A stretch of DNA of 64,000 bases from Escherichia coli (GCF_030384885.1 NZ_CP128613.1); one strand, 5' to 3'; positions 37,897 to 50,266 are shown, counted from the stretch's first letter. Translations and numbers: made by a program. Notes: generated from the letters alone by a model not told the origin.

Positions 37897-38862
37897 ATGA
37901 CAAAGTATGCATTAGTCGGTGATGTGGGCGGCACCAACGCACGTCTTGCTCTGTGTGATATTGCCAGTGGTGAAATCTCGCAGGCTAAGACCTATTCAGG
38001 GCTTGATTACCCGAGCCTCGAAGCGGTCATTCGCGTTTATCTTGAAGAACATAAGGTCGAGGTGAAAGACGGCTGTATTGCCATCGCTTGCCCCATTACC
38101 GGTGACTGGGTGGCAATGACCAACCATACCTGGGCGTTCTCAATTGCCGAAATGAAAAAGAATCTCGGTTTTAGCCATCTGGAAATTATTAACGATTTTA
38201 CCGCTGTATCGATGGCGATCCCGATGCTGAAAAAAGAGCATCTGATTCAGTTTGGTGGCGCAGAACCAGTCGAAGGTAAGCCTATTGCGGTTTACGGTGC
38301 CGGAACGGGGCTTGGGGTTGCGCATCTGGTTCATGTTGATAAACGCTGGGTAAGCTTGCCAGGCGAAGGCGGTCACGTTGATTTTGCGCCGAATAGTGAA
38401 GAAGAGGCCATTATCCTCGAAATACTGCGTGCAGAAATTGGTCATGTTTCGGCAGAGCGCGTGCTTTCTGGCCCTGGTCTGGTGAATTTGTATCGCGCGA
38501 TTGTGAAAGCCGACAACCGCCTGCCAGAAAATCTCAAGCCAAAAGATATTACCGAACGTGCGCTGGCTGACAGCTGCACCGATTGCCGCCGCGCGTTGTC
38601 GCTGTTTTGCGTCATTATGGGCCGTTTTGGCGGCAATCTGGCGCTCAATCTCGGGACATTTGGCGGCGTGTTTATTGCCGGTGGTATCGTGCCGCGCTTC
38701 CTTGAGTTCTTCAAAGCCTCTGGTTTCCGTGCCGCATTTGAAGATAAAGGGCGCTTTAAAGAATATGTCCATGATATTCCGGTGTATCTCATCGTCCATG
38801 ACAATCCGGGCCTTCTCGGCTCCGGCGCACATTTACGCCAGACCTTAGGCCACATTCTGTAA
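37897..38862 (+). CDS. glk: Glucokinase
   Basis: 321-aa [24 protein letters not shown]... recognised as Glk. Confidence 0.95.
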
Positions 38863-39080
38863 ATCCTTCCTGTCAAATCGGGAGATAACTCTCCCGATAA
38901 TCTTTTAAATCAAACAGTTAATCCTATTTTTCTTTGTGTCCCCTCACAAGGCCGACCTGCGTCACACTTCCGTACAGCGGGATTAATTCTCCAGTAAATG
39001 CATTATTTGTCTGGTAACGGCGATTTGTTTTGCACGTTCATAATTTCACTCATCAACTATCACTGAACGAGGAATTAACG

Positions 39081-39407
39081 ATGAGTAAGAAACTGATTGC
39101 CTTATGTGCCTGCCCAATGGGCCTGGCTCACACCTTTATGGCCGCTCAGGCGCTGGAAGAAGCGGCGGTAGAAGCCGGTTATGAAGTGAAAATTGAAACC
39201 CAGGGTGCGGACGGCATCCAGAATCGTCTGACCGCGCAGGATATCGCCGAAGCGACCATCATCATCCACTCCGTGGCGGTTACCCCGGAAGATAACGAAC
39301 GTTTCGAATCACGCGACGTTTATGAAATCACTTTGCAGGACGCAATTAAAAACGCTGCGGGCATCATCAAAGAAATCGAAGAGATGATTGCCGCTGAACA
39401 ACAGTAA
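39081..39407 (+). CDS. fryB: PTS fructose-like EIIB component
   Basis: Track ORF trimmed to MSKKLIALCACPMGLAHTFMAAQ... giving 108 aa; EIIB-Fru CxxCP cysteine motif; gagg RBS. Confidence 0.8.
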   Translation: MSKKLIALCACPMGLAHTFMAAQALEEAAVEAGYEVKIETQGADGIQNRLTAQDIAEATIIIHSVAVTPEDNERFESRDVYEITLQDAIKNAAGIIKEIEEMIAAEQQ

Positions 39408-39428
39408 TATTCGACAGGGATAATTGTT

Positions 39429-40676
39429 ATGGCCATTAAAAAACGCAGTGCAACCGTTGTGCCTGGCGCATCCGGTGCGGCAGCGGCAATTAAGAATCCG
39501 CAGGCCTCTAAAACCAGCTTCTGGGGTGAGCTCCCGCAGCATGTGATGTCAGGGATTTCACGCATGGTGCCAACCTTAATTATGGGCGGTGTGATCCTCG
39601 CTTTCAGCCAGTTGATTGCTTATAGCTGGCTTAAAATTCCTGCGGATATCGGCATCATGGATGCTCTTAATAGCGGGAAATTCTCCGGTTTCGACCTCTC
39701 CTTACTGAAGTTTGCCTGGCTGTCACAGTCCTTTGGTGGCGTGCTGTTTGGCTTTGCCATACCGATGTTTGCCGCTTTTGTGGCGAACTCCATCGGCGGC
39801 AAACTGGCATTCCCGGCTGGTTTTATCGGCGGCTTGATGTCTACCCAGCCGACGCAACTGCTGAACTTCGATCCCAGCACGATGCAATGGGCGACCTCTT
39901 CGCCGGTGCCGTCCACCTTCATTGGTGCCCTGATTATTTCTATCGTTGCGGGTTACCTTGTGAAGTGGATGAACCAGAAAATCCAGTTACCGGATTTCCT
40001 GTTAGCGTTCAAAACCACATTTTTGCTACCGATTCTTTCCGCCATTTTTGTCATGCTGGCGATGTACTACGTCATCACCCCATTTGGTGGCTGGATCAAC
40101 GGCGGTATTCGTGCCGTGCTGACTGCCGCAGGTGAGAAGGGCGCGCTAATGTATGCGATGGGTATCGCAGCAGCGACAGCAATCGACCTTGGTGGCCCGA
40201 TCAACAAAGCAGCAGGTTTCGTTGCCTTCAGCTTTACCACTGACCACGTATTACCGGTCACCGCACGTTCTATCGCTATCGTTATTCCACCGATTGGTCT
40301 GGGTCTGGCGACCATTATTGACCGTCGTTTAACCGGCAAACGCCTGTTCAACGCTCAGCTTTATCCGCAGGGTAAAACCGCCATGTTCCTTGCCTTTATG
40401 GGGATCAGTGAGGGTGCGATTCCGTTTGCGCTGGAAAGCCCCATCACCGCTATTCCGTCCTATATGGTTGGCGCGATTGTCGGCTCAACCGCCGCTGTCT
40501 GGCTGGGTGCAGTTCAATGGTTCCCGGAATCTGCTATCTGGGCATGGCCGCTGGTCACTAACCTCGGTGTCTATATGGCGGGGATCGCGCTGGGAGCAAT
40601 CATTACTGCGCTGATGGTGGTGTTCCTGCGTCTGATGATGTTCCGTAAAGGCAAATTGTTAATCGATAGCCTGTAA
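39429..40676 (+). CDS. fryC: PTS fructose-like EIIC component
   Basis: 415-aa polytopic membrane ORF downstream of fryB. Confidence 0.8.
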
Positions 40677-40690
40677 GAAGGACAATCCAG

Positions 40691-41776
40691 ATGACATTAC
40701 TCGCTTCGCTGCGCGACTGGCTTAAGGCGCAACAACTGGATGCAGTGCTTCTCTCCTCACGGCAGAACAAACAGCCGCATCTGGGGATCTCCACCGGATC
40801 AGGTTATGTGCTGATTAGTCGTGAAAGTGCGCACATTCTGGTGGATTCGCGCTATTACGCGGATGTAGAAGCCCGCACCCAGGGCTACCAGCTGCATTTG
40901 CTTGATGCGACGCACACGCTTACCACTATCGTCAGGCAAATCATTGCCGATGAGCAGTTGCAAACGCTCGGTTTTGAAGGCCAGCAGGTAAGTTGGGAAA
41001 CCGCGCACCGCTGGCAGTCTGAACTCAATGCGAAACTGGTAAGCGCCACGCCGGATGTGCTGCGGCAAATCAAAACGCCAGAGGAGGTGGAGAAAATCCG
41101 CCTCGCCTGTGGGATTGCCGATCGCGGTGCAGAGCATATTCGCCGCTTTATTCAGGCGGGGATGAGCGAATGCGAGATAGCCGCTGAACTGGAGTGGTTT
41201 ATGCGCCAGCAGGGCGCAGAAAAAGCCTCTTTCGATACCATTGTCGCCAGTGGCTGGCGTGGGGCGCTGCCGCACGGCAAAGCCAGCGACAAGATTGTTG
41301 CAGCGGGCGAGTTTGTCACTCTTGATTTTGGTGCGCTGTATCAGGGCTACTGCTCTGATATGACGCGTACCTTGCTGGTGAATGGCGAAGGGGTGAGCGC
41401 CGAATCTCACCCGCTGTTTGATGTGTATAACATTGTCCTGCAGGCACAGCTCGCGGCAATCTCCGCGATTCGCCCCGGCGTGCGCTGCCAACAGGTTGAC
41501 GACGCCGCGCGCCGGATCATTACAGAAGCCGGTTATGGTGACTATTTTGGTCACAACACTGGTCATGCCATCGGCATTGAAGTCCATGAAGAGCCGCGTT
41601 TTTCACCGCAGGACACCACGACGCTACAGCCAGGGATGTTACTGACCGTGGAGCCGGGGATTTATTTGCCAGGGCGAGGTGGCGTGCGCATCGAAGATGT
41701 CGTGCTGGTTACCCCGCAAGGCGCGGAAGTGCTCTACGCCATGCCAAAAACAGTGTTGCTCACGGGAGAGGCATAA
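40691..41776 (+). CDS. ypdF: Xaa-Pro aminopeptidase (M24 family)
   Basis: 361-aa ORF with M24 metal-ligand motifs ([13 protein letters not shown]). Confidence 0.8.
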
Positions 41777-42813
41777 TGGATTTATCGCTATTAAAAGCGT
41801 TGAGCGAGGCAGATGCGATCGCCTCCTCGGAACAGGAAGTGCGGCAGATCCTGCTGGATGAAGCGGATCGACTGCAAAAAGAAGTGCGATTTGATGGCCT
41901 GGGATCGGTGCTGATCCGCCTCAATGAATCGACAGGTCCGAAGGTGATGATCTGTGCGCATATGGACGAAGTGGGATTTATGGTGCGTAGCATCTCCCGC
42001 GAAGGGGCGATTGATGTCCTGCCAGTTGGCAATGTGCGCATGGCTGCCCGCCAGCTTCAGCCAGTACGGATCACTACTCGTGAAGAGTGCAAAATTCCCG
42101 GTTTGCTCGATGGCGAACGGCAGGGGAATGACGTCAGCGCCATGCGCGTGGACATTGGTGCGCGCTCGTATGACGAAGTGATGCAGGCAGGTATTCGTCC
42201 GGGCGATCGTGTCACGTTTGATACCACTTTTCAGGTTCTCCCTCACCAGCGAGTGATGGGTAAAGCCTTTGATGACCGCCTCGGTTGCTACCTGCTGGTG
42301 ACGTTACTACGTGAGCTGCACAACGCCGAGCTGCCTGCGGAAGTGTGGCTGGTGGCAAGTTCCAGCGAAGAGGTGGGATTACGCGGCGGGCAAACCGCCA
42401 CCCGCGCGGTGTCGCCGGACATCGCCATTGTGCTTGATACCGCCTGCTGGGCGAAAAACTTTGATTATGGCGCGGCTAACCATCGCCAGATTGGTAACGG
42501 CCCGATGCTGGTGTTAAGCGACAAGTCGCTGATTGCGCCGCCAAAACTTACCGCGTGGATCGAAACCGTCGCGGCAGAAATTGGCGTGCCGTTGCAGGCC
42601 GATATGTTCAGCAACGGCGGAACGGACGGCGGGGCGGTGCATTTAACCGGCACTGGCGTACCCACAGTGGTGATGGGGCCAGCAACCCGCCACGGACATT
42701 GCGCCGCATCGATTGCCGACTGCCGCGACATTTTGCAGATGCAGCAGCTTTTATCTGCCCTTATTCAACGTCTTACCCGTGAGACGGTTGTTCAACTGAC
42801 GGATTTCAGATGA
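41776..42813 (+). CDS. ypdE: M42-family aminopeptidase
   Basis: 345-aa ORF; start overlaps ypdF stop. Confidence 0.8.
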
Positions 42814-42837
42814 TCTCCTGATTAACCCGGAGCGGTT

Positions 42838-45333
42838 ATGTTAACGATTCAATTTCTCTGTCCTTTGCCAAACGGCCTGCATGCTCGTCCGGCGTGGGAA
42901 CTTAAAGAGCAGTGCAGCCAGTGGCAAAGCGAAATCATCTTCATTAACCATCGCCAGAACGTAAAGGCCGATGCCAAAAGTTCGCTGGCGCTGATTGGCA
43001 CCGGCACCTTATTTAATGACAGTTGCAGCCTGAACATTAGCGGCAGCGATGAAGAGCAGGCGCGGCGCGTGCTGGAAGAGTACATCCAGGTGCGCTTTAT
43101 CGACAGCGACAGCGTCCAGCCGACGCAGGCAGAACTGACGGCACATCCACTGCCGCGTTCATTAAGCCGCCTGAACCCTGATTTACTGTACGGCAATGTG
43201 CTGGCAAGCGGCGTCGGCGTGGGTACGTTGACCCTGCTACAGAGCAACAGCCTCGACAGTTATCGGGCAATCCCGGCTAGTGCGCAAGACTCCACCTGGC
43301 TGGAACACAGCCTGGCAACGCTTGCCGAGCAACTGAACCAGCAGTTGCGCGAGCGTGACGGCGAAAGCAAAACTATCCTCAGCGCCCATTTATCGCTGAT
43401 TCAGGATGATGAATTTGCAGGGAATATCCGTCGCCTGATGGCAGAACAGCATCAGGGGCTGGGGGCTGCGATCATCAGCAATATGGAGCAGGTTTGCGCC
43501 AAGCTTTCTGCCTCTGCCAGCGATTATCTGCGCGAGCGGGTCAGCGACATTCGTGATATCAGCGAACAATTGCTGCATATCACCTGGCCGGAACTGAAGC
43601 CGCGTAATAATCTGGTGCTCGAAAAACCGACCATTCTGGTGGCTGAAGATTTAACCCCTAGCCAGTTTTTGAGCCTCAATTTAAAAAATCTTGCGGGCAT
43701 GATTCTGGAGAAAACCGGGCGCACCTCGCATACTCTGATTCTGGCCCGCGCCTCGGCGATCCCCGTACTGAGCGGCCTGCCGCTGGATGCCATTGCTCGC
43801 TATGCCGGGCAACCGGCGGTGCTTGACGCCCAGTGCGGCGTGCTGGCTATTAATCCTGATGACGCGGTGGGTGGTTATTATCAGGTTGCGCAGACGCTGG
43901 CGGATAAACGCCAGAAACAACAGGCGCAGGCCGCCGCGCAGCTGGCCTATTCCCGTGATAACAAGCGCATTGATATCGCGGCGAATATTGGCACCGCTCT
44001 GGAAGCGCCTGGCGCGTTTGCCAACGGCGCGGAAGGTGTCGGGCTGTTTCGTACCGAAATGCTCTATATGGAGCGCGACAGTGCGCCGGACGAACAGGAA
44101 CAGTTTGAAGCATACCAACAGGTGCTACTGGCGGCGGGCGACAAGCCGATTATTTTCCGCACGATGGACATCGGCGGCGATAAAAGCATTCCTTACCTCA
44201 ACATTCCCCAGGAAGAGAACCCGTTCCTCGGCTATCGCGCGGTACGAATTTACCCGGAATTTGCTGGCCTGTTCCGCACTCAACTGCGGGCTATTTTGCG
44301 TGCCGCCAGTTTCGGCAACGCCCAGCTGATGATCCCGATGGTTCACAGCCTCGATCAGATCTTATGGGTGAAGGGCGAGATCCAAAAAGCGATCGTTGAG
44401 CTTAAACGCGATGGCCTGCGTCATGCAGAGTCGATTACGCTGGGTATCATGGTGGAAGTACCGTCGGTGTGCTACATCATCGACCACTTCTGCGATGAGG
44501 TCGATTTCTTCAGTATCGGTTCTAACGATATGACCCAGTATCTGTATGCGGTCGATCGTAATAACCCGCGCGTATCGCCGCTGTATAACCCGATTACGCC
44601 ATCGTTCCTGCGCATGTTGCAGCAGATTGTTACCACTGCGCATCAGCGCGGCAAATGGGTAGGTATTTGCGGTGAACTGGGCGGTGAAAGTCGTTATCTG
44701 CCGCTACTGCTTGGACTGGGCCTGGATGAGCTGAGTATGAGTAGCCCGCGTATTCCGGCGGTGAAAAGCCAGCTTCGTCAACTGGATAGCGAGGCGTGTC
44801 GGGAACTGGCGCGTCAGGCATGTGAATGCCGCAGTGCGCAGGAAATTGAAGCGTTACTCACCGCCTTTACGCCGGAAGAAGACGTTCGCCCACTGCTGGC
44901 GCTGGAGAATATCTTTGTTGATCAGGCCTTTAGCAATAAAGAGCAGGCGATCCAGTTCCTGTGCGGCAACCTTGGCGTTAACGGGCGTACTGAACATCCG
45001 TTTGAGCTGGAAGAAGATGTCTGGCAGCGGGAAGAGATTGTCACTACTGGCGTTGGTTTTGGCGTGGCGATCCCGCACACCAAATCTCAGTGGATCCGTC
45101 ATTCCAGTATCAGCATTGCCCGGCTGGTGAAACCGGTTGACTGGCAGTCAGAAATGGGCGAAGTCGAACTGGTGATCATGCTGACGCTGGGCGCTAACGA
45201 AGGGATGAACCATGTGAAAGTCTTCTCGCAGCTGGCGCGCAAACTGGTGAATAAAAACTTCCGCCAGTCGTTGTTTGCCGCGCAAGATGCACAAAGCATC
45301 CTGACGCTGCTGGAAACGGAATTAACCTTCTGA
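42838..45333 (+). CDS. fryA: PTS multiphosphoryl transfer protein (fused HPr-like, enzyme I-like and EIIA domains)
   Basis: 831-aa ORF; N-terminal HPr-like segment (GLHARPA), central region paralogous to ptsI in this same window, C-terminal EIIA-Fru-like domain. Confidence 0.85.
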   Translation: MLTIQFLCPLPNGLHARPAWELKEQCSQWQSEIIFINHRQNVKADAKSSLALIGTGTLFNDSCSLNISGSDEEQARRVLEEYIQVRFIDSDSVQPTQAELTAHPLPRSLSRLNPDLLYGNVLASGVGVGTLTLLQSNSLDSYRAIPASAQDSTWLEHSLATLAEQLNQQLRERDGESKTILSAHLSLIQDDEFAGNIRRLMAEQHQGLGAAIISNMEQVCAKLSASASDYLRERVSDIRDISEQLLHITWPELKPRNNLVLEKPTILVAEDLTPSQFLSLNLKNLAGMILEKTGRTSHTLILARASAIPVLSGLPLDAIARYAGQPAVLDAQCGVLAINPDDAVGGYYQVAQTLADKRQKQQAQAAAQLAYSRDNKRIDIAANIGTALEAPGAFANGAEGVGLFRTEMLYMERDSAPDEQEQFEAYQQVLLAAGDKPIIFRTMDIGGDKSIPYLNIPQEENPFLGYRAVRIYPEFAGLFRTQLRAILRAASFGNAQLMIPMVHSLDQILWVKGEIQKAIVELKRDGLRHAESITLGIMVEVPSVCYIIDHFCDEVDFFSIGSNDMTQYLYAVDRNNPRVSPLYNPITPSFLRMLQQIVTTAHQRGKWVGICGELGGESRYLPLLLGLGLDELSMSSPRIPAVKSQLRQLDSEACRELARQACECRSAQEIEALLTAFTPEEDVRPLLALENIFVDQAFSNKEQAIQFLCGNLGVNGRTEHPFELEEDVWQREEIVTTGVGFGVAIPHTKSQWIRHSSISIARLVKPVDWQSEMGEVELVIMLTLGANEGMNHVKVFSQLARKLVNKNFRQSLFAAQDAQSILTLLETELTF

Positions 45334-45335
45334 CG

Positions 45336-46193
45336 TTAGCCCTGAAAACGGGCGCTGTACTCTCCCGGCGTCAGGCCAAACTGACGCCGGAAGACGCGAC
45401 AAAAATAGTCGCTGTCCGGAAAGCCGCAACGCTGCGCCACTTCATGAATCGACAGATGATATTTCTGCAAAATCATCCTCGCCTTCGCCATTCGCACCCA
45501 ACGCACATATTCGATAAAACGCATTGTTCCATGCTGCGCAAACAGTTTTGACAGATGATTGGGCGTGATATTAAAAAACTGCGCCACGTTCTCACGGGTG
45601 AGCGGCTGGGCATAATTATCCTGAACCCAGTTACAAATGCTGTGATAGAGAAAATCGCCGCGCGGCTGCGAATTACCCGGCGGCATATTCACCACGTTGC
45701 GGCAAAGATGCAGCAAACTTAACACCAGCGGCTGAATGATATTCTGCTCCAGCGGCGAACGGCTAAGATGGGTGAGGGCAGTAAGCATTGCTTCACCTTC
45801 GCCGCGTTGCAGGCTGGGAAGTTGGATCTGGCGAACCGGATGCAACAACGACGTGGTGCGGCTATCGTAATACGATAAACCAAGCCAGGTCGGCGCGAAC
45901 ACCAGACTTAACAGCATTACCGGTTTGTTGTTGACCGGTAAATTAGCCGCGCGCGCTGGAATAAACAGCATTTCTCCTTCCACCATACGTTGTTGCTTTG
46001 CTTCCAGCTGATTGCCGTATTCGCCGCGTAGCACGATATCCAGACGGGGAAAATCAATACATAAACTGCCCACTGGCAATGAGGCGGGCTGGCTGGCAAA
46101 CCAGACGCGCCCAAGGAGTTGCGGGTTAAGCACCAGGCCGCTGAACAGATCGGCGAAAAATTGTTGATCGGCGGGCAAGCCTGTTGCTTTCAT
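45336..46193 (-). CDS. ypdC: AraC-family transcriptional regulator
   Basis: 285-aa ORF with C-terminal AraC-type HTH. Confidence 0.75.
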   Translation of the reverse strand: MKATGLPADQQFFADLFSGLVLNPQLLGRVWFASQPASLPVGSLCIDFPRLDIVLRGEYGNQLEAKQQRMVEGEMLFIPARAANLPVNNKPVMLLSLVFAPTWLGLSYYDSRTTSLLHPVRQIQLPSLQRGEGEAMLTALTHLSRSPLEQNIIQPLVLSLLHLCRNVVNMPPGNSQPRGDFLYHSICNWVQDNYAQPLTRENVAQFFNITPNHLSKLFAQHGTMRFIEYVRWVRMAKARMILQKYHLSIHEVAQRCGFPDSDYFCRVFRRQFGLTPGEYSARFQG

Positions 46194-46204
46194 GAAAATC
46201 CCGA

Positions 46205-46939
46205 TTACAGATGCATTAACTGCCTGAATTCTTTTACTTTGCTACGGCTGACCGGCACTTCAAAATCCAGATCTTTCAGTCGCAGAATGTAGGTGTTATT
46301 AAACCACGGTTCGATTTCGCGGATTTTGTTCAGATTGACACAAAATGAGCGATGGCAGCGGAAAAAATGCGACGGCGGCAGCTTGCTGCAAAACTCGGTA
46401 ATGTTCATCGGCATTACGTAGGATTCACGCCGCGTATAGACAAAGGTCATTTTCTCGTGCGCTTCGGCGTAATAGATATCGTTAATTGGCGTGACGATGA
46501 TTCGCTCATCTTTCACCAGATTAATGGTGTCATTCTCACGCGTTACCGTCGCGGCAGGCGTACTGCTGGTCTGCTGTTGTTGCCAGGCTGCTTCCAGTTT
46601 TTGCAGCATCCCGGTAATGCGTGATTCCTGATACGGTTTGAGAATGTAGTCAAACGCTTCCAGTTCAAACGCTTCTACCGCATGTTCTTTCCACGCGGTG
46701 ATGAACACAATAAACGGTTTATGGGCGAACTGGCTGATGTTTTGCGCCAGCAACACACCATCCAGCGACGGAATATTGATATCCAGAAAAATGGCGTCGA
46801 CGCGGTTATGCTGCAAAAACTTCAACACGTCCAGACCGTCGTCAAAGGTGCCGACAATCTCCATCTGGCTGTGCTCTTTAATTAGCCAGCTCAGTTCCTG
46901 TTGTGCCAGGAATTCGTCTTCAACAATGATGACTTTCAC
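46205..46939 (-). CDS. ypdB: LytTR-family response regulator
   Basis: Track ORF (TTG start) trimmed to GTG giving MKVIIVEDEF...; receiver domain plus LytTR DNA-binding domain; 244 aa. Confidence 0.8.
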   Translation of the reverse strand: MKVIIVEDEFLAQQELSWLIKEHSQMEIVGTFDDGLDVLKFLQHNRVDAIFLDINIPSLDGVLLAQNISQFAHKPFIVFITAWKEHAVEAFELEAFDYILKPYQESRITGMLQKLEAAWQQQQTSSTPAATVTRENDTINLVKDERIIVTPINDIYYAEAHEKMTFVYTRRESYVMPMNITEFCSKLPPSHFFRCHRSFCVNLNKIREIEPWFNNTYILRLKDLDFEVPVSRSKVKEFRQLMHL

Positions 46940-46953
46940 AATATCACTCCGGC

Positions 46954-48651
46954 TCAAAGCAATAACGTAGCCTGTGAGGCGACAGGGGTGCGTTGGTTAG
47001 GAATGTAAAACGCAATTTCCGTTCCTGGTTCCAGGCGGCGGATATGCAGCCCCTCGCCATACAATAACTTCACGCGATGATGGACATTCAGCAGGCCAAT
47101 TTTATTGCCCGGCATTTCGTTCGCTTCGACCCGCTCAATGACTTTTGGATCGATGCCGTGCCCGGTATCTCGCACCGCAATGCGTACCCGATTACCGCAC
47201 TCTGCAACGCTGATGGTGACAACGCCTTTACCTTTGCAAGGCTGAATACCGTGGACAATGGCGTTCTCCACTAAAGGCTGGATCAGCAGGCTGGGAATGC
47301 AGCAATTCACCTCTTCATCAATATCATAGATAACCGTCAGCTTGTCGCCAAAGCGGGCCTGCTCAATGGCAATATAGTCTTTAATTTGATACAGCTCTTT
47401 TTTGATATCGATTTGCTCATCGTCTTTTAATTCAATGTTATAGCGCAGATAACGCGACAGATTAAAGATCAGCTGGCGAGCGGTATCCGGATTCAGACGG
47501 ATCGACGATGAGATAGCATTCAGAGCATTAAACAGGAAATGGGGATTAATTTTGCTTTGCAGAGCGCGAAGCTCTGCCTTATTTGCCATTTCACGTAGTT
47601 GCTCGGCGCGTGAAACCTCCAGTTGGGTGGAGATGATTTGCGACAGACCGACCGCCATTTCCTGTAATGACGAGGTGATCTGATGTGCGTGGCAGTAGTA
47701 AATTTTCAGCGTCCCGGTCACGACCCCTTTCTCCCAAAGCGGGATCACCAGCATCGAGTGGATTTCCGGTGTACGGTGGGCTTCATCATTGTTTTTAATA
47801 ATGATTTTTCCGTAATTCATTGCCTGACGCGTTGTTGGGCTGATGAAATCATCGCCATTCTGATAGTTGTGTTCACCTACGCCAACATAGGCCAGCACAT
47901 GATCGGTGTTGGTAATCGCTACCGCATCGGCGTGAATATCATCGCGGATAATTTCACAAACTTTGCGTAATGACTCGCTATTGACATGGCGAAACAGCGG
48001 CAGCGTTTTGTTGGCGATATCCAGCGCCAGCTTGGCCTGCCGCGCGGCGCTGGCCTCTTTTTCGCCCTCAACGCTTTGTACCAGCAACACAATAAAGCCG
48101 ATACAAACGCTGCCGAGGATCATCGGAATCCCGATTTTGGAGACGATATCAATCCCCAGTGCAGTGGTGGGTGCCCAGACAATCACCAGGATCATCGTCA
48201 ACGTTTCACATAACATGCCACCGAGAATACCGACGCGCCAGCGCTGTGCTTTGGGGATTTTCAGGTTGATCCAGCCTGATATGCAACCCGCGAGAATACT
48301 GGTGATAAAGCACGGAATTGCCGTCACGCCGCCGATGTCGATTAAATAACGGTGAATACCCGCAATCACACCGGTAATGATGCCTACCCACGGGCCAAAT
48401 AGAATTCCGCCTGACATCACCGCGATAATACGCACATTAACCAGCGAGCCTTCTACGGGCACGCCGGACCAGGTGCTGAACAGGGCGAACAGCGAGAAAA
48501 TGGCGGTAACGGCGAGCAGCTCTTTTGGGGAGTGCGCCGACTTGTGCAACAGTTCGCGAAACAGGCGGATACGGATGAGAAAGAACAGGCAGATAAGCAT
48601 TAACGCTGCCCGATCGAAGACCGCCAGCAGCATGTTGAATATTTCGTGCAC
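46954..48651 (-). CDS. ypdA: LytS-type sensor histidine kinase
   Basis: 565-aa ORF with multi-TM sensing domain, GAF-like region and HisKA_3/HATPase domains. Confidence 0.8.
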
Positions 48652-49027
48652 GGGTGACTCTGAATAAGGATTAAACCTCTATGATAGGTAACCTGAAGGC
48701 CGATGACCAGCAGGCCGTTTTTGAGGAAAGACCACAATTTTAAAAGGGGATTGAAAGTTAAATGGTGTATTAGCAATGCATCTCTTAATAATGCATATCT
48801 GTTTGGTAAATTTATTGAAATTATAATGTTAATAAATTGAGTGGTAATTTTCTTGTTAGCGTAGATAAATTTCCTGTTTTTAAAGCGGAGTTCCTCATTT
48901 AAGGCTATTAACAAAAATGTTCTAAAACGCTGGACAGACAGAAATTAATCAGGCTATTTTCAAAACAGCCACCATCGTGGCAGCGTCGCTCGGACGGTCC
49001 GGGCGCTCACGTTAATCTGAGGAAATT

Positions 49028-50266
49028 ATGGCTGACACTCGCCCTGAACGTCGCTTTACGCGTATTGATCGTCTCCCACCCTACGTTTTTAACATTACCG
49101 CTGAACTGAAAATGGCTGCGCGTCGGCGCGGCGAAGATATTATCGATTTCAGTATGGGTAACCCGGACGGTGCGACCCCGCCGCATATCGTCGAAAAATT
49201 ATGTACGGTGGCCCAGCGACCGGACACGCATGGTTATTCCACCTCGCGTGGTATTCCGCGGTTACGTCGCGCCATTTCCCGCTGGTATCAGGATCGCTAC
49301 GACGTCGAGATCGACCCGGAATCAGAGGCTATCGTCACCATTGGCTCGAAAGAGGGGCTGGCGCATCTGATGCTGGCGACGCTGGATCACGGTGACACTG
49401 TACTGGTGCCTAATCCAAGCTACCCGATTCATATTTACGGCGCGGTGATTGCCGGGGCGCAGGTACGCTCAGTGCCGCTGGTGGACGGTGTCGATTTCTT
49501 CAACGAACTGGAACGCGCCATTCGCGAAAGTTATCCGAAACCGAAGATGATGATCCTCGGCTTCCCGTCGAACCCAACCGCGCAATGCGTGGAACTGGAA
49601 TTCTTTGAGAAGGTTGTGGCGCTGGCGAAACGCTACGATGTGCTGGTGGTCCATGACCTGGCCTATGCCGATATCGTCTACGATGGCTGGAAAGCGCCGT
49701 CAATTATGCAGGTGCCGGGTGCACGAGACGTGGCGGTCGAGTTCTTTACGCTGTCGAAAAGCTACAACATGGCGGGCTGGCGTATCGGCTTTATGGTCGG
49801 TAACAAAACGCTGGTCAGTGCGTTGGCACGTATTAAAAGCTATCACGATTACGGTACTTTTACGCCGTTGCAGGTGGCGGCGATTGCGGCACTGGAGGGC
49901 GATCAACAGTGCGTGCGCGATATTGCCGAACAGTACAAACGCCGCCGCGATGTACTGGTTAAAGGGCTGCATGAAGCAGGCTGGATGGTCGAAATGCCGA
50001 AGGCTTCGATGTATGTCTGGGCGAAAATCCCGGAACCATATGCGGCCATGGGCTCACTGGAATTTGCCAAGAAACTGCTTAACGAAGCGAAGGTCTGTGT
50101 CTCTCCAGGGATTGGCTTTGGCGACTACGGCGACACCCATGTCCGCTTTGCGCTGATTGAAAACCGCGACCGTATACGCCAGGCGATTCGTGGAATTAAA
50201 GCGATGTTCCGTGCCGACGGTTTACTACCCGCCAGCAGCAAACATATTCACGAAAACGCGGAATAA
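49028..50266 (+). CDS. alaC: Glutamate-pyruvate aminotransferase (class I aminotransferase)
   Basis: 412-aa PLP aminotransferase ORF recognised as AlaC/YfdZ. Confidence 0.85.

Follow-up and report, generated by a model that had tools for sequence, protein, structure and literature searches.

A sugar phosphotransferase system coupled to aminopeptidases in the fry operon of Escherichia coli and its possible mannosyl-peptide substrate

Why does Escherichia coli encode two aminopeptidases within an operon for a sugar phosphotransferase system (PTS)? The question is raised by the fry operon, which occupies positions 39081–45333 of a 64,000-nucleotide stretch of E. coli DNA (GCF_030384885.1 NZ_CP128613.1; the window, to which all gene and site coordinates refer). 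The operon consists of five closely packed genes on the + strand in the order fryB-fryC-ypdF-ypdE-fryA. The operon itself is not new, being annotated in strain K-12. E. coli has several such "fructose-like" orphan PTS systems, for which no substrate has been found since they were first described. The coupling of this PTS to peptidases is conserved across four phyla, and the same type of transporter is found with interchangeable partner enzymes. Comparison of the loci suggests that the substrate of fry may not be fructose but a mannose-linked amino acid or small peptide. The reading that we put forward tentatively, with slightly less than even confidence, is that of an activator-dependent operon with a private PTS that would import an α-mannosyl conjugate of an amino acid or peptide, which would then be trimmed by YpdF and YpdE. 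The comparison thus adds a testable substrate hypothesis for an orphan PTS, together with a candidate pair of regulator and operator.

A PTS–peptidase module shared by four phyla

The five genes, their strand and order, and the HPr/EI/EIIA domain order of the fused FryA were proposed in a first-pass annotation of the window and are confirmed by open reading frame (ORF) calls and Pfam matches (Table 1). The long ORFs and very strong family matches exclude that the five-gene pattern is due to chance. The intergenic distances from fryB to fryA are 21, 14, −1, and 24 nucleotides, with a Shine-Dalgarno sequence at each of the 21-, 14-, and 24-nucleotide junctions. The start–stop overlap of the two peptidase genes at 41776, also recognized in that annotation, has the sequence TAATG: the last A of the ypdF stop codon TAA (41774–41776) is the first base of the ypdE start codon (41776–41778). 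Independent transcription of the peptidase genes would have spoken against their role in the PTS; however, a generic scan finds promoter-like and terminator-like sites inside the operon at a frequency not above that of shuffled sequence. A paper from 2009 gives fryBC-ypdF-ypdE-fryA as a single operon (PMC2731931). The counterpart in K-12 is b2387–b2383, the last gene of which is named fryA, and ypdC is b2382. The stretch is 100% identical to that of E. coli 2013C-4282 (NZ_CP027579.1), where the genes are annotated fryB, fryC, ypdF, ypdE, and "ptsP". The RefSeq/PGAP name "ptsP", used in 2013C-4282 and many other genomes (L001 11758–14253), denotes fryA and not the nitrogen-PTS EI-Ntr gene ptsP.

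Table 1 Features of the fry locus in the window, with predicted regulatory sites
Feature	Positions	Strand	Description	Basis
Terminator-like hairpin after glk	38877–38898	+	9-bp stem, 5 G-C pairs	consensus match only
CRP-like site	38951–38966	+	GCCGA-N6-TCACA	GA and TCACA positions conserved only
Conserved 36-bp block	38983–39018	+	TTAATTCTCCAGTAAATGCATTATTTGTCTGGTAAC; overlaps the −35 position; candidate YpdC operator	
Predicted fryB −10 hexamer	39039–39044	+	CATAAT; no good −35	at least 90% conserved in 36 loci
fryB	39081–39407	+	108 residues, Fru-type PTS EIIB	ORF call; Pfam PTS_IIB, 1e-19
fryC	39429–40676	+	415 residues, PTS EIIC permease	Pfam PTS_EIIC, 3e-14
ypdF	40691–41776	+	361 residues, M24B (Xaa-Pro type) aminopeptidase	Pfam Creatinase_N and Peptidase_M24, 4e-73
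ypdE	41776–42813	+	345 residues, M42 (TET-type) aminopeptidase	Pfam Peptidase_M42, 2e-85
fryA	42838–45333	+	831 residues, multiphosphoryl transfer protein	Pfam PTS-HPr, three EI domains, EIIA_2, in that order
ypdC	45336–46193	−	AraC-family regulator, convergent on fryA	Pfam

Every phosphotransfer and metal-ligand motif is intact in the five proteins. FryB carries its phospho-cysteine C11 in CPMGLAHT, a form of the EIIB motif CPxGxAHT, and scores 92 bits against TIGR00829 (cutoff 76.85). FryA has H15 in the HPr part (GLHARPA), H298 (GRTSHTLILAR) and C611 (CGE) in the EI part, and H747 (GVAIPH) in the Fru-type EIIA part. These EI, HPr, EIIA, and EIIB signatures predict that the system belongs to the Fru family (TC 4.A.2). 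YpdF, the structure of which has been solved (5CNX), possesses the complete set of M24B metal ligands, D212, D223, H292, E321, and E335. The motifs HMDE62, FDDR165, SEEVG197, LDT220, and RHGH305 of YpdE form the complete metal-binding set of the M42 family; the structure 1YLO of the Shigella orthologue SF2450 is near-identical, and TET structures are matched at an E value of 1e-49. The aminopeptidase activity of YpdE has been characterized in vitro, according to the citation of Zheng et al. 2005 in PMC3511314.

The distribution of the module was determined in two ways. YpdF was searched against 1.84 billion representative proteins, and the contigs behind the matches were then read. In addition, a FryC alignment was scanned against one genome per species from 100,044 species; 80 loci with at least 50% identity to FryC were kept, and their architectures were assigned by tblastn mapping, ORF clustering, and Pfam. 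The resulting FryC subfamily, with members at least 50% identical to each other and 25–30% identical to the IIC domains of FruA, FrvB, FrwC, and MngA, occurs in Enterobacterales, Clostridia, Erysipelotrichia, Negativicutes, and Fusobacteriota. An M24 peptidase gene directly follows fryC in 60 of the 80 loci, from four phyla, and its partner is a peptidase of the M42 family or an M20 peptidase of the Sapep/PepV type. The window locus has this arrangement, with a FryC-subfamily EIIC followed by the M24 and second peptidase. The remaining 20 loci comprise 17 with a GH38 α-mannosidase, one with a lyase only, and two cut by contig ends.

The peptidase loci share a core and differ in their flanks. 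The order IIB-IIC-M24-M42-FryA, without a lyase, is found in 31 loci from Escherichia, Citrobacter, Salmonella arizonae and diarizonae, Kluyvera, Enterobacter, Lelliottia, Pluralibacter, Hafnia, and Serratia, and its beginning is visible in two Enterobacter metagenome-assembled genomes (MAGs; L036 and L042) before the contig ends. One locus with this order, from a Sodalis-like enterobacterium (YpdF identity 60%), is preceded by an AraC gene and continues after the HPr-EI-IIA gene with a 391-residue pyridoxal phosphate (PLP) enzyme, a lyase. The order PRD-IIA-IIB-IIC-M24-M42-lyase, starting with a PRD regulator, is present in 14 loci from Clostridia and Erysipelotrichia and in one more that is cut by a contig end; they include a clostridial metagenome lineage (YpdF identity 46%) and an erysipelotrich (45%). 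Eight loci from C. difficile, Pelosinus, Lucifera, Caloramator, and others are organized as M20-PRD-IIA-IIB-IIC-M24-lyase, two from Rahnella as LacI-M20-IIB-IIC-M24, and one from Geosporobacter as M24-lyase. In the other loci, the GH38 gene, encoding 845–934 residues, lies directly after IIC (17 loci from Hungatella, Fusobacteriota, S. suis, BVAB1, Peptoniphilaceae, and Tissierellia), Streptobacillus has PRD-IIA-IIB-IIC-lyase, and in E. albertii (L015) and Buttiauxella (L032) the contig ends soon after IIB-IIC. In the E. coli version, the PRD regulator and free IIA of the Firmicute loci are exchanged for an AraC regulator and an HPr-EI-IIA protein of its own. The transporters of E. coli and of the clostridial locus are nevertheless 76% (FryB) and 63% (FryC) identical, and the clostridial M42 peptidase scores 484 bits against the NCBI YpdE equivalog model, above the cutoff of 412. 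The proposal that the peptidases work together with the PTS on a glycopeptide-like compound is thus supported by the gene junctions and by the synteny across four phyla; the identity of the compound is addressed below.

Linkage to a PTS is not a general property of YpdF homologues: Gracilibacillus and a Clostridiaceae MAG have 42–43% identical proteins in housekeeping aroQ-M24-efp loci without a PTS. One of the 80 loci (L035, CACSKA010000002.1), labeled "Chryseobacterium sp. 18061", has the fry arrangement typical of Enterobacteriaceae, groups with that of Pluralibacter, and probably comes from a mislabeled or contaminated assembly.

Partner enzymes of the FryC transporters and the putative substrate

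The peptidase and GH38 types of loci are intermixed in the transporter tree, so that the same FryC transporter is combined with interchangeable partners. FryC-like EIICs form a clade in all 60 bootstrap replicates, with MngA outside. A subclade recovered in 58 of the 60 mixes M20-type, Rahnella-type, lyase-only, and most GH38-type loci, and the rest of the tree contains the M42-type loci and the GH38 loci of Hungatella. Neither the peptidase-linked nor the GH38-linked members are monophyletic in any of the replicates. The lyase-bearing Streptobacillus locus groups with the GH38-bearing loci of Leptotrichia, and its lyase gene is located after IIC, exactly where the Leptotrichia relatives carry GH38.

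The peptidases are joined outside the enterobacteria by a PLP-dependent β-lyase of the PatB/MalY family, present in 23 of the 24 non-enterobacterial loci of the peptidase type; the exception stops at a contig edge. The PLP enzyme of the Sodalis-like, clostridial, and erysipelotrich loci matches the PatB-family C-S lyase model TIGR04350 (357 and 348 bits, cutoff 340). The Sodalis-like lyase, encoded after fryA (L002 12717–13892 = L045), is 65% identical to E. coli MalY (L097 3458–4630) and only 29% identical to the clostridial lyase. Lyases of the PatB family have therefore been recruited to FryC transporters at least twice. In the window, no lyase gene is present between fryA and ypdC. AlaC, encoded 3.7 kb downstream, was considered as the missing PLP enzyme, the counterpart of the 391-residue Aminotran_1_2 protein encoded after the module in relatives. 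It was rejected, as it is only 23% identical and scores 883 bits against NF006033 as a true alanine transaminase.

The GH38 partners are full-length homologues of MngB (29–30% identity over 95% coverage), and their sole NCBIfam match is mannosylglycerate hydrolase. No GH38 gene of this MngAB type was found in the window or in any of the 32 enterobacterial loci. The neighborhoods of the GH38-type loci contain no recurrent gene beyond PRD regulator-IIA-IIB-IIC-GH38, and hence give no clue to an aglycone. A type I phosphomannose isomerase gene adjoins five peptidase/lyase loci, is the next gene after the lyase in three of them, in the same orientation, and is divergent in C. difficile and a relative.

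A plain fructose-like sugar PTS, accompanied by two aminopeptidases as housekeeping passengers, is what the current annotation implies, and the 2023 review PMC10305011 still terms FryBC "fructose-like". This alternative agrees with the assignment to the Fru family, with the matches of FryB to FRU IIB models, with the borderline score of FryC, which is 28% identical to the IIC domain of FruA, against the fructose-specific EIIC model TIGR01427 (157.0 bits, just below the cutoff of 157.55), and with the 42–43% identity of YpdF to PapA/YqhT-type housekeeping M24 peptidases without a PTS neighbor. We consider it very unlikely, as it leaves unexplained the M24 gene immediately 3′ of fryC in three quarters of the loci, from four phyla. 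Furthermore, the partners that are swapped are GH38 and mannose-6-phosphate isomerase rather than enzymes of fructose metabolism. The module contains no 1-phosphofructokinase; a link to fructose-1-phosphate kinase was rejected since the PfkB genes in four clostridial loci belong to an adjacent cluster for an ABC transporter.

The alternation of an MngB-like α-mannosidase with peptidases and a β-lyase, sometimes joined by the isomerase, is most simply explained if the transporter recognizes an α-mannosyl group, carried by aglycones that differ or are processed in different ways. The peptidase set implies that the aglycone would be an amino acid or a peptide. Protein O-mannosylation occurs in contexts rich in Pro, Ser, and Thr, which fits the Xaa-Pro-specific M24B peptidase being the constant member. 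The position of the lyase in place of GH38 suggests that the lyase breaks the bond between sugar and amino acid by β-elimination.

The pathway that we propose would start with the transfer of phosphate from phosphoenolpyruvate (PEP) to His298 in the EI part of FryA and on through HPr His15, EIIA His747, and FryB Cys11 to the substrate bound by FryC. The FryC system would import and phosphorylate a small conjugate of a sugar with an amino acid or peptide. The sugar is most likely α-mannosyl, giving a linked mannose-6-phosphate, and the aglycone most likely Ser or Thr within a short Pro-containing peptide. In the cytoplasm, the Xaa-Pro-specific YpdF and the broad-specificity YpdE would trim the peptide. 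The sugar phosphate would then be freed by the PatB/MalY-type lyase in most relatives, or by the GH38 α-mannosidase in others. β-Elimination would yield the sugar phosphate, pyruvate (or 2-oxobutyrate), and ammonia, and phosphomannose isomerase would pass the sugar phosphate to glycolysis. The E. coli operon would have lost the final enzyme, and may borrow MalY, MetC, or MngB for this step; alternatively, its pathway may end with the glyco-amino acid. A bolder version of this pathway, in which FryBC-type PTSs mark an unrecognized cross-phylum route for O-mannosylated, Pro/Ser/Thr-rich glycopeptides, M24 with M42 or M20 peptidases remove the residues around the phosphorylated glyco-amino acid, and the PLP β-lyase, instead of a glycosidase, eliminates mannose-6-phosphate from Ser or Thr, is unlikely.

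The same gene architecture could instead serve a sulfur-linked substrate, namely a sugar-bearing cysteine S-conjugate, such as Cys-Gly or Cys-Xaa derived from a glutathione adduct, degraded by a mercapturate-like route. The peptidases would release the cysteine conjugate, and a C-S lyase would split it into a thio-sugar phosphate, pyruvate, and ammonia. The lyase does fall in the PatB C-S lyase family, and its nearest solved relatives are PatB, cysteine-S-conjugate β-lyases, and MalY. The M20 partners in C. difficile-type loci are Sapep/PepV dipeptidases that also match the NCBI model "Cys-Gly-3M3SH dipeptidase", below its cutoff, and an M20 peptidase paired with such a lyase makes up the staphylococcal thioalcohol pathway. 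However, S-glycosyl cysteine conjugates occur only rarely in nature relative to O-mannosyl Ser/Thr, the GH38 partners within the FryC subfamily favor ordinary O-glycosides, and the E. coli operon has no lyase. We regard the sulfur-linked route as unlikely.

Non-enzymatically glycated peptides (Amadori or Heyns products carrying fructosyl or mannosaminyl groups), with the M42 peptidase acting as a "deblocking" aminopeptidase, would also combine a sugar with a peptide. Glycated amino acids are catabolized through PTSs in Salmonella and Enterococcus, some archaeal M42 peptidases have deblocking activity, and the fry transporter belongs to the Fru family. PMC3511314 cites deblocking aminopeptidases. 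By contrast, none of the 80 loci contains a FrlB/GfrE-type deglycase or a fructosamine kinase, and neither GH38 nor a β-lyase would have a role on N-linked glycation products, which makes such a substrate highly improbable.

Regulation and persistence of the operon

A generic promoter scan 5′ of fryB gave nothing convincing; the putative promoter emerged only when the 260 bp preceding fryB were aligned across 36 enterobacterial species that differ in their upstream genes. Conservation in this alignment is limited to the last ~130 bp. In the window, the terminator-like hairpin appears to divide glk (stop codon at 38862) from the promoter region of fry. The motif GA-N6-TCACAnTTC (38954–38969) is at least 90% conserved, and CRP is a candidate factor for it. 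The 36-bp block, with the 90% consensus TnAnnnnTCCnGnnAnnGCnTnnTTnnTCnGnTAA, is unique in the window, where 0.01 matches are expected; its co-occurrence with YpdC homologues makes it a candidate YpdC operator. The −10 hexamer was missed by the generic scan because the −35 is poor, and a poor −35 fits an activator-dependent promoter. This layout is that of a catabolic promoter dependent on an activator. Transcription probably requires YpdC bound at 38983–39018 together with CRP, and this requirement would account for the silence of the operon in the laboratory.

The genes ypdC, ypdB, and ypdA are all located on the − strand. The stop codons of ypdC and fryA are 2 nucleotides apart, and since this spacer contains no terminator, the converging transcripts must enter each other's coding regions (45331–45338). 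The operon and the gene for its putative regulator could therefore be subject to transcriptional interference. The first-pass annotation was right about the position and strand of the ypdABC cluster; however, ypdAB is a late neighbor, and ypdC alone accompanies the module. A gene for an AraC-family homologue of YpdC adjoins 29 of the 32 enterobacterial fry loci, with or without ypdAB, whereas ypdAB is found at only 10–11 of them (Escherichia, some Citrobacter, Pseudocitrobacter). YpdC thus most likely originated as the regulator of the module and was later captured into the ypdABC transcription unit, in which it is embedded with a gap of 11 nucleotides. In the Sodalis-like locus (L045), the AraC gene is upstream of the module on the same strand. 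Salmonella enterica subsp. diarizonae (L026) and arizonae (L027), the only Salmonella genomes among the 80 loci, have fry and ypdC followed directly by alaC, without ypdAB. In Citrobacter amalonaticus (L022), no ypdC homologue adjoins the fry locus.

Among 5426 complete E. coli genomes, 5424 carry the fry locus; only two are at least 99% identical to the window over the operon, and 2052 are 90–95% identical. Gene order and lengths are the same in K-12, with nucleotide identities of 95–98% per gene and protein identities of 96–99%. All the genes are under purifying selection: dN/dS relative to K-12 is 0.02–0.06 for fryB, fryC, ypdE, fryA, and ypdC, and 0.13 for ypdF, which is the least constrained. 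ypdF is also the fastest-evolving gene of the operon, with 73% identity between E. coli and Citrobacter as opposed to 88–94% for its neighbors. In-frame deletions in ypdF remove 41 residues in the catalytic domain in E. albertii (24 contigs) and 57 residues in S. dysenteriae (113 contigs), and occur as sporadic singletons in E. coli (proteins P0030, P0035). The fryA gene of C. amalonaticus (L022 13411–15776) is apparently frameshifted, with a 493-residue HPr-EI ORF and the IIA part in another frame. Synonymous divergence (dS) from K-12 is 0.15–0.30 from fryC through alaC (39429–50266) and about 0.09–0.10 in glk, fryB, and ypdB. An unusual divergence specific to the fry operon was rejected, because the high dS reaches ypdA and alaC and is thus regional; the uneven pattern resembles a patchwork of old alleles or of tracts of recombination.

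It is conceivable that the E. coli operon is a largely silent remnant that has lost its bond-breaking enzyme, serves no catabolic pathway, and is kept for a side role, either of FryA as an alternative EI/HPr or of a PEP/pyruvate-linked signal to the pyruvate sensor YpdAB via the co-transcribed ypdC. No lyase, GH38, or isomerase gene is present at any Enterobacteriaceae locus. Conditions that induce the operon are not known, YpdC showed no binding by ChIP-exo, and a transcriptome atlas of 43 carbon sources does not contain fry. The decay alleles of ypdF and fryA and the location of ypdC within the ypdABC unit point in the same direction. The purifying selection and intact catalytic motifs, the near-universal presence in the E. 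coli core, and the retention of the promoter block across 36 species are hard to explain if the operon is dead, and ypdAB accompanies the module in a minority of loci. We regard a remnant as unlikely; the selection on the genes and the retained promoter speak for an operon in current use.

Several points weigh against an α-mannosyl amino-acid or peptide conjugate as the substrate. All the functional steps, including the sugar, the aglycone, the chemistry of the lyase, and the pairings of module with substrate and of regulator with operator, are ones that we infer from gene neighborhood. Enzymes of the PatB family have been characterized as C-S, not C-O, lyases, and a precedent for β-elimination of O-glycosyl serine was not found. 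FryC shows no particular closeness to MngA (27% identity), and phosphomannose isomerase adjoins only the five loci mentioned above. There is no mannose-6-phosphate isomerase gene in the E. coli fry operon and, with the lyase and GH38 missing as well, the pathway as drawn is incomplete there. The ypdF deletions fixed in some lineages and the frameshift in C. amalonaticus indicate that fry is dispensable in some lineages. ChIP-exo in K-12 yielded no peaks for YpdC under the conditions used (PMC8464067), a result that is expected without an inducer and neither supports nor excludes the operator. Full-text literature searches yielded no data on substrate, phenotype, or regulator for fry, ypdE, ypdF, ypdC, or the lyase-containing homologues. 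The Listeria genes lmo0398–0402, possible members of the FryC subfamily, are mentioned in transcriptome lists only.

The comparative pattern narrows the question of the substrate to a short list of compounds that can be purchased or synthesized, and nominates YpdC and its operator. If the α-mannosyl reading is correct, mannosylated amino acids and peptides from fungal, actinobacterial, or host glycoproteins would be a nutrient class used by gut Enterobacteriaceae, Clostridia including C. difficile, and Fusobacteriota. If the lyase acts as suggested, it would represent a new enzymatic release of O-glycans and hint at the roles of MalXY and other orphan PTS operons that contain M42 peptidases.

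Comparison with known systems

The K-12 fryBC-ypdFE-fryA operon with ypdC is the same locus without structural difference, and the window allele diverges from it to an unusual degree at synonymous sites (dS 0.15–0.20). A functional precedent is mngRAB of E. coli, in which a Fru-family PTS phosphorylates an α-mannoside on uptake and a cytoplasmic enzyme frees mannose-6-phosphate (PMC2815779). This layout, with an MngB-like GH38, is reproduced by 17 members of the FryC subfamily. By contrast, E. coli fry encodes peptidases rather than GH38, has IIB and IIC as two separate proteins, and supplies EI and HPr itself; its EIIC is not orthologous to MngA.

The coupling of peptidases to a PTS, described as unusual in the first-pass annotation, is real; however, it is not new, since all three E. 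coli M42 paralogues are encoded in PTS operons. The orphan PTS operons frvABXR and sgcXBCQAER each include an M42 paralogue, FrvX and SgcX, respectively. The substrate of sgc is also unknown (PMC13343008). Unlike fry, the two operons have no M24 partner and no private EI or HPr; the IIC of sgc is of the galactitol type, and FrvB is 25% identical to FryC.

In malXY of E. coli, the PTS permease MalX is co-transcribed with the PatB-family PLP lyase MalY, a pairing for which the logic may be the same as in the fry-type modules. MalX differs in being a Glc-family IIBC, and the operon contains no peptidases. We know of no physiological substrate of MalY. In the staphylococcal thioalcohol pathway, the Cys-Gly-3M3SH dipeptidase and a PatB C-S lyase act in turn on a conjugated amino acid. 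Its enzymes, a Sapep/PepV M20 dipeptidase and then a PatB lyase, are the same pair as in the C. difficile-type modules; however, uptake is by a peptide transporter rather than a PTS, and neither a sugar nor phosphorylation is involved.

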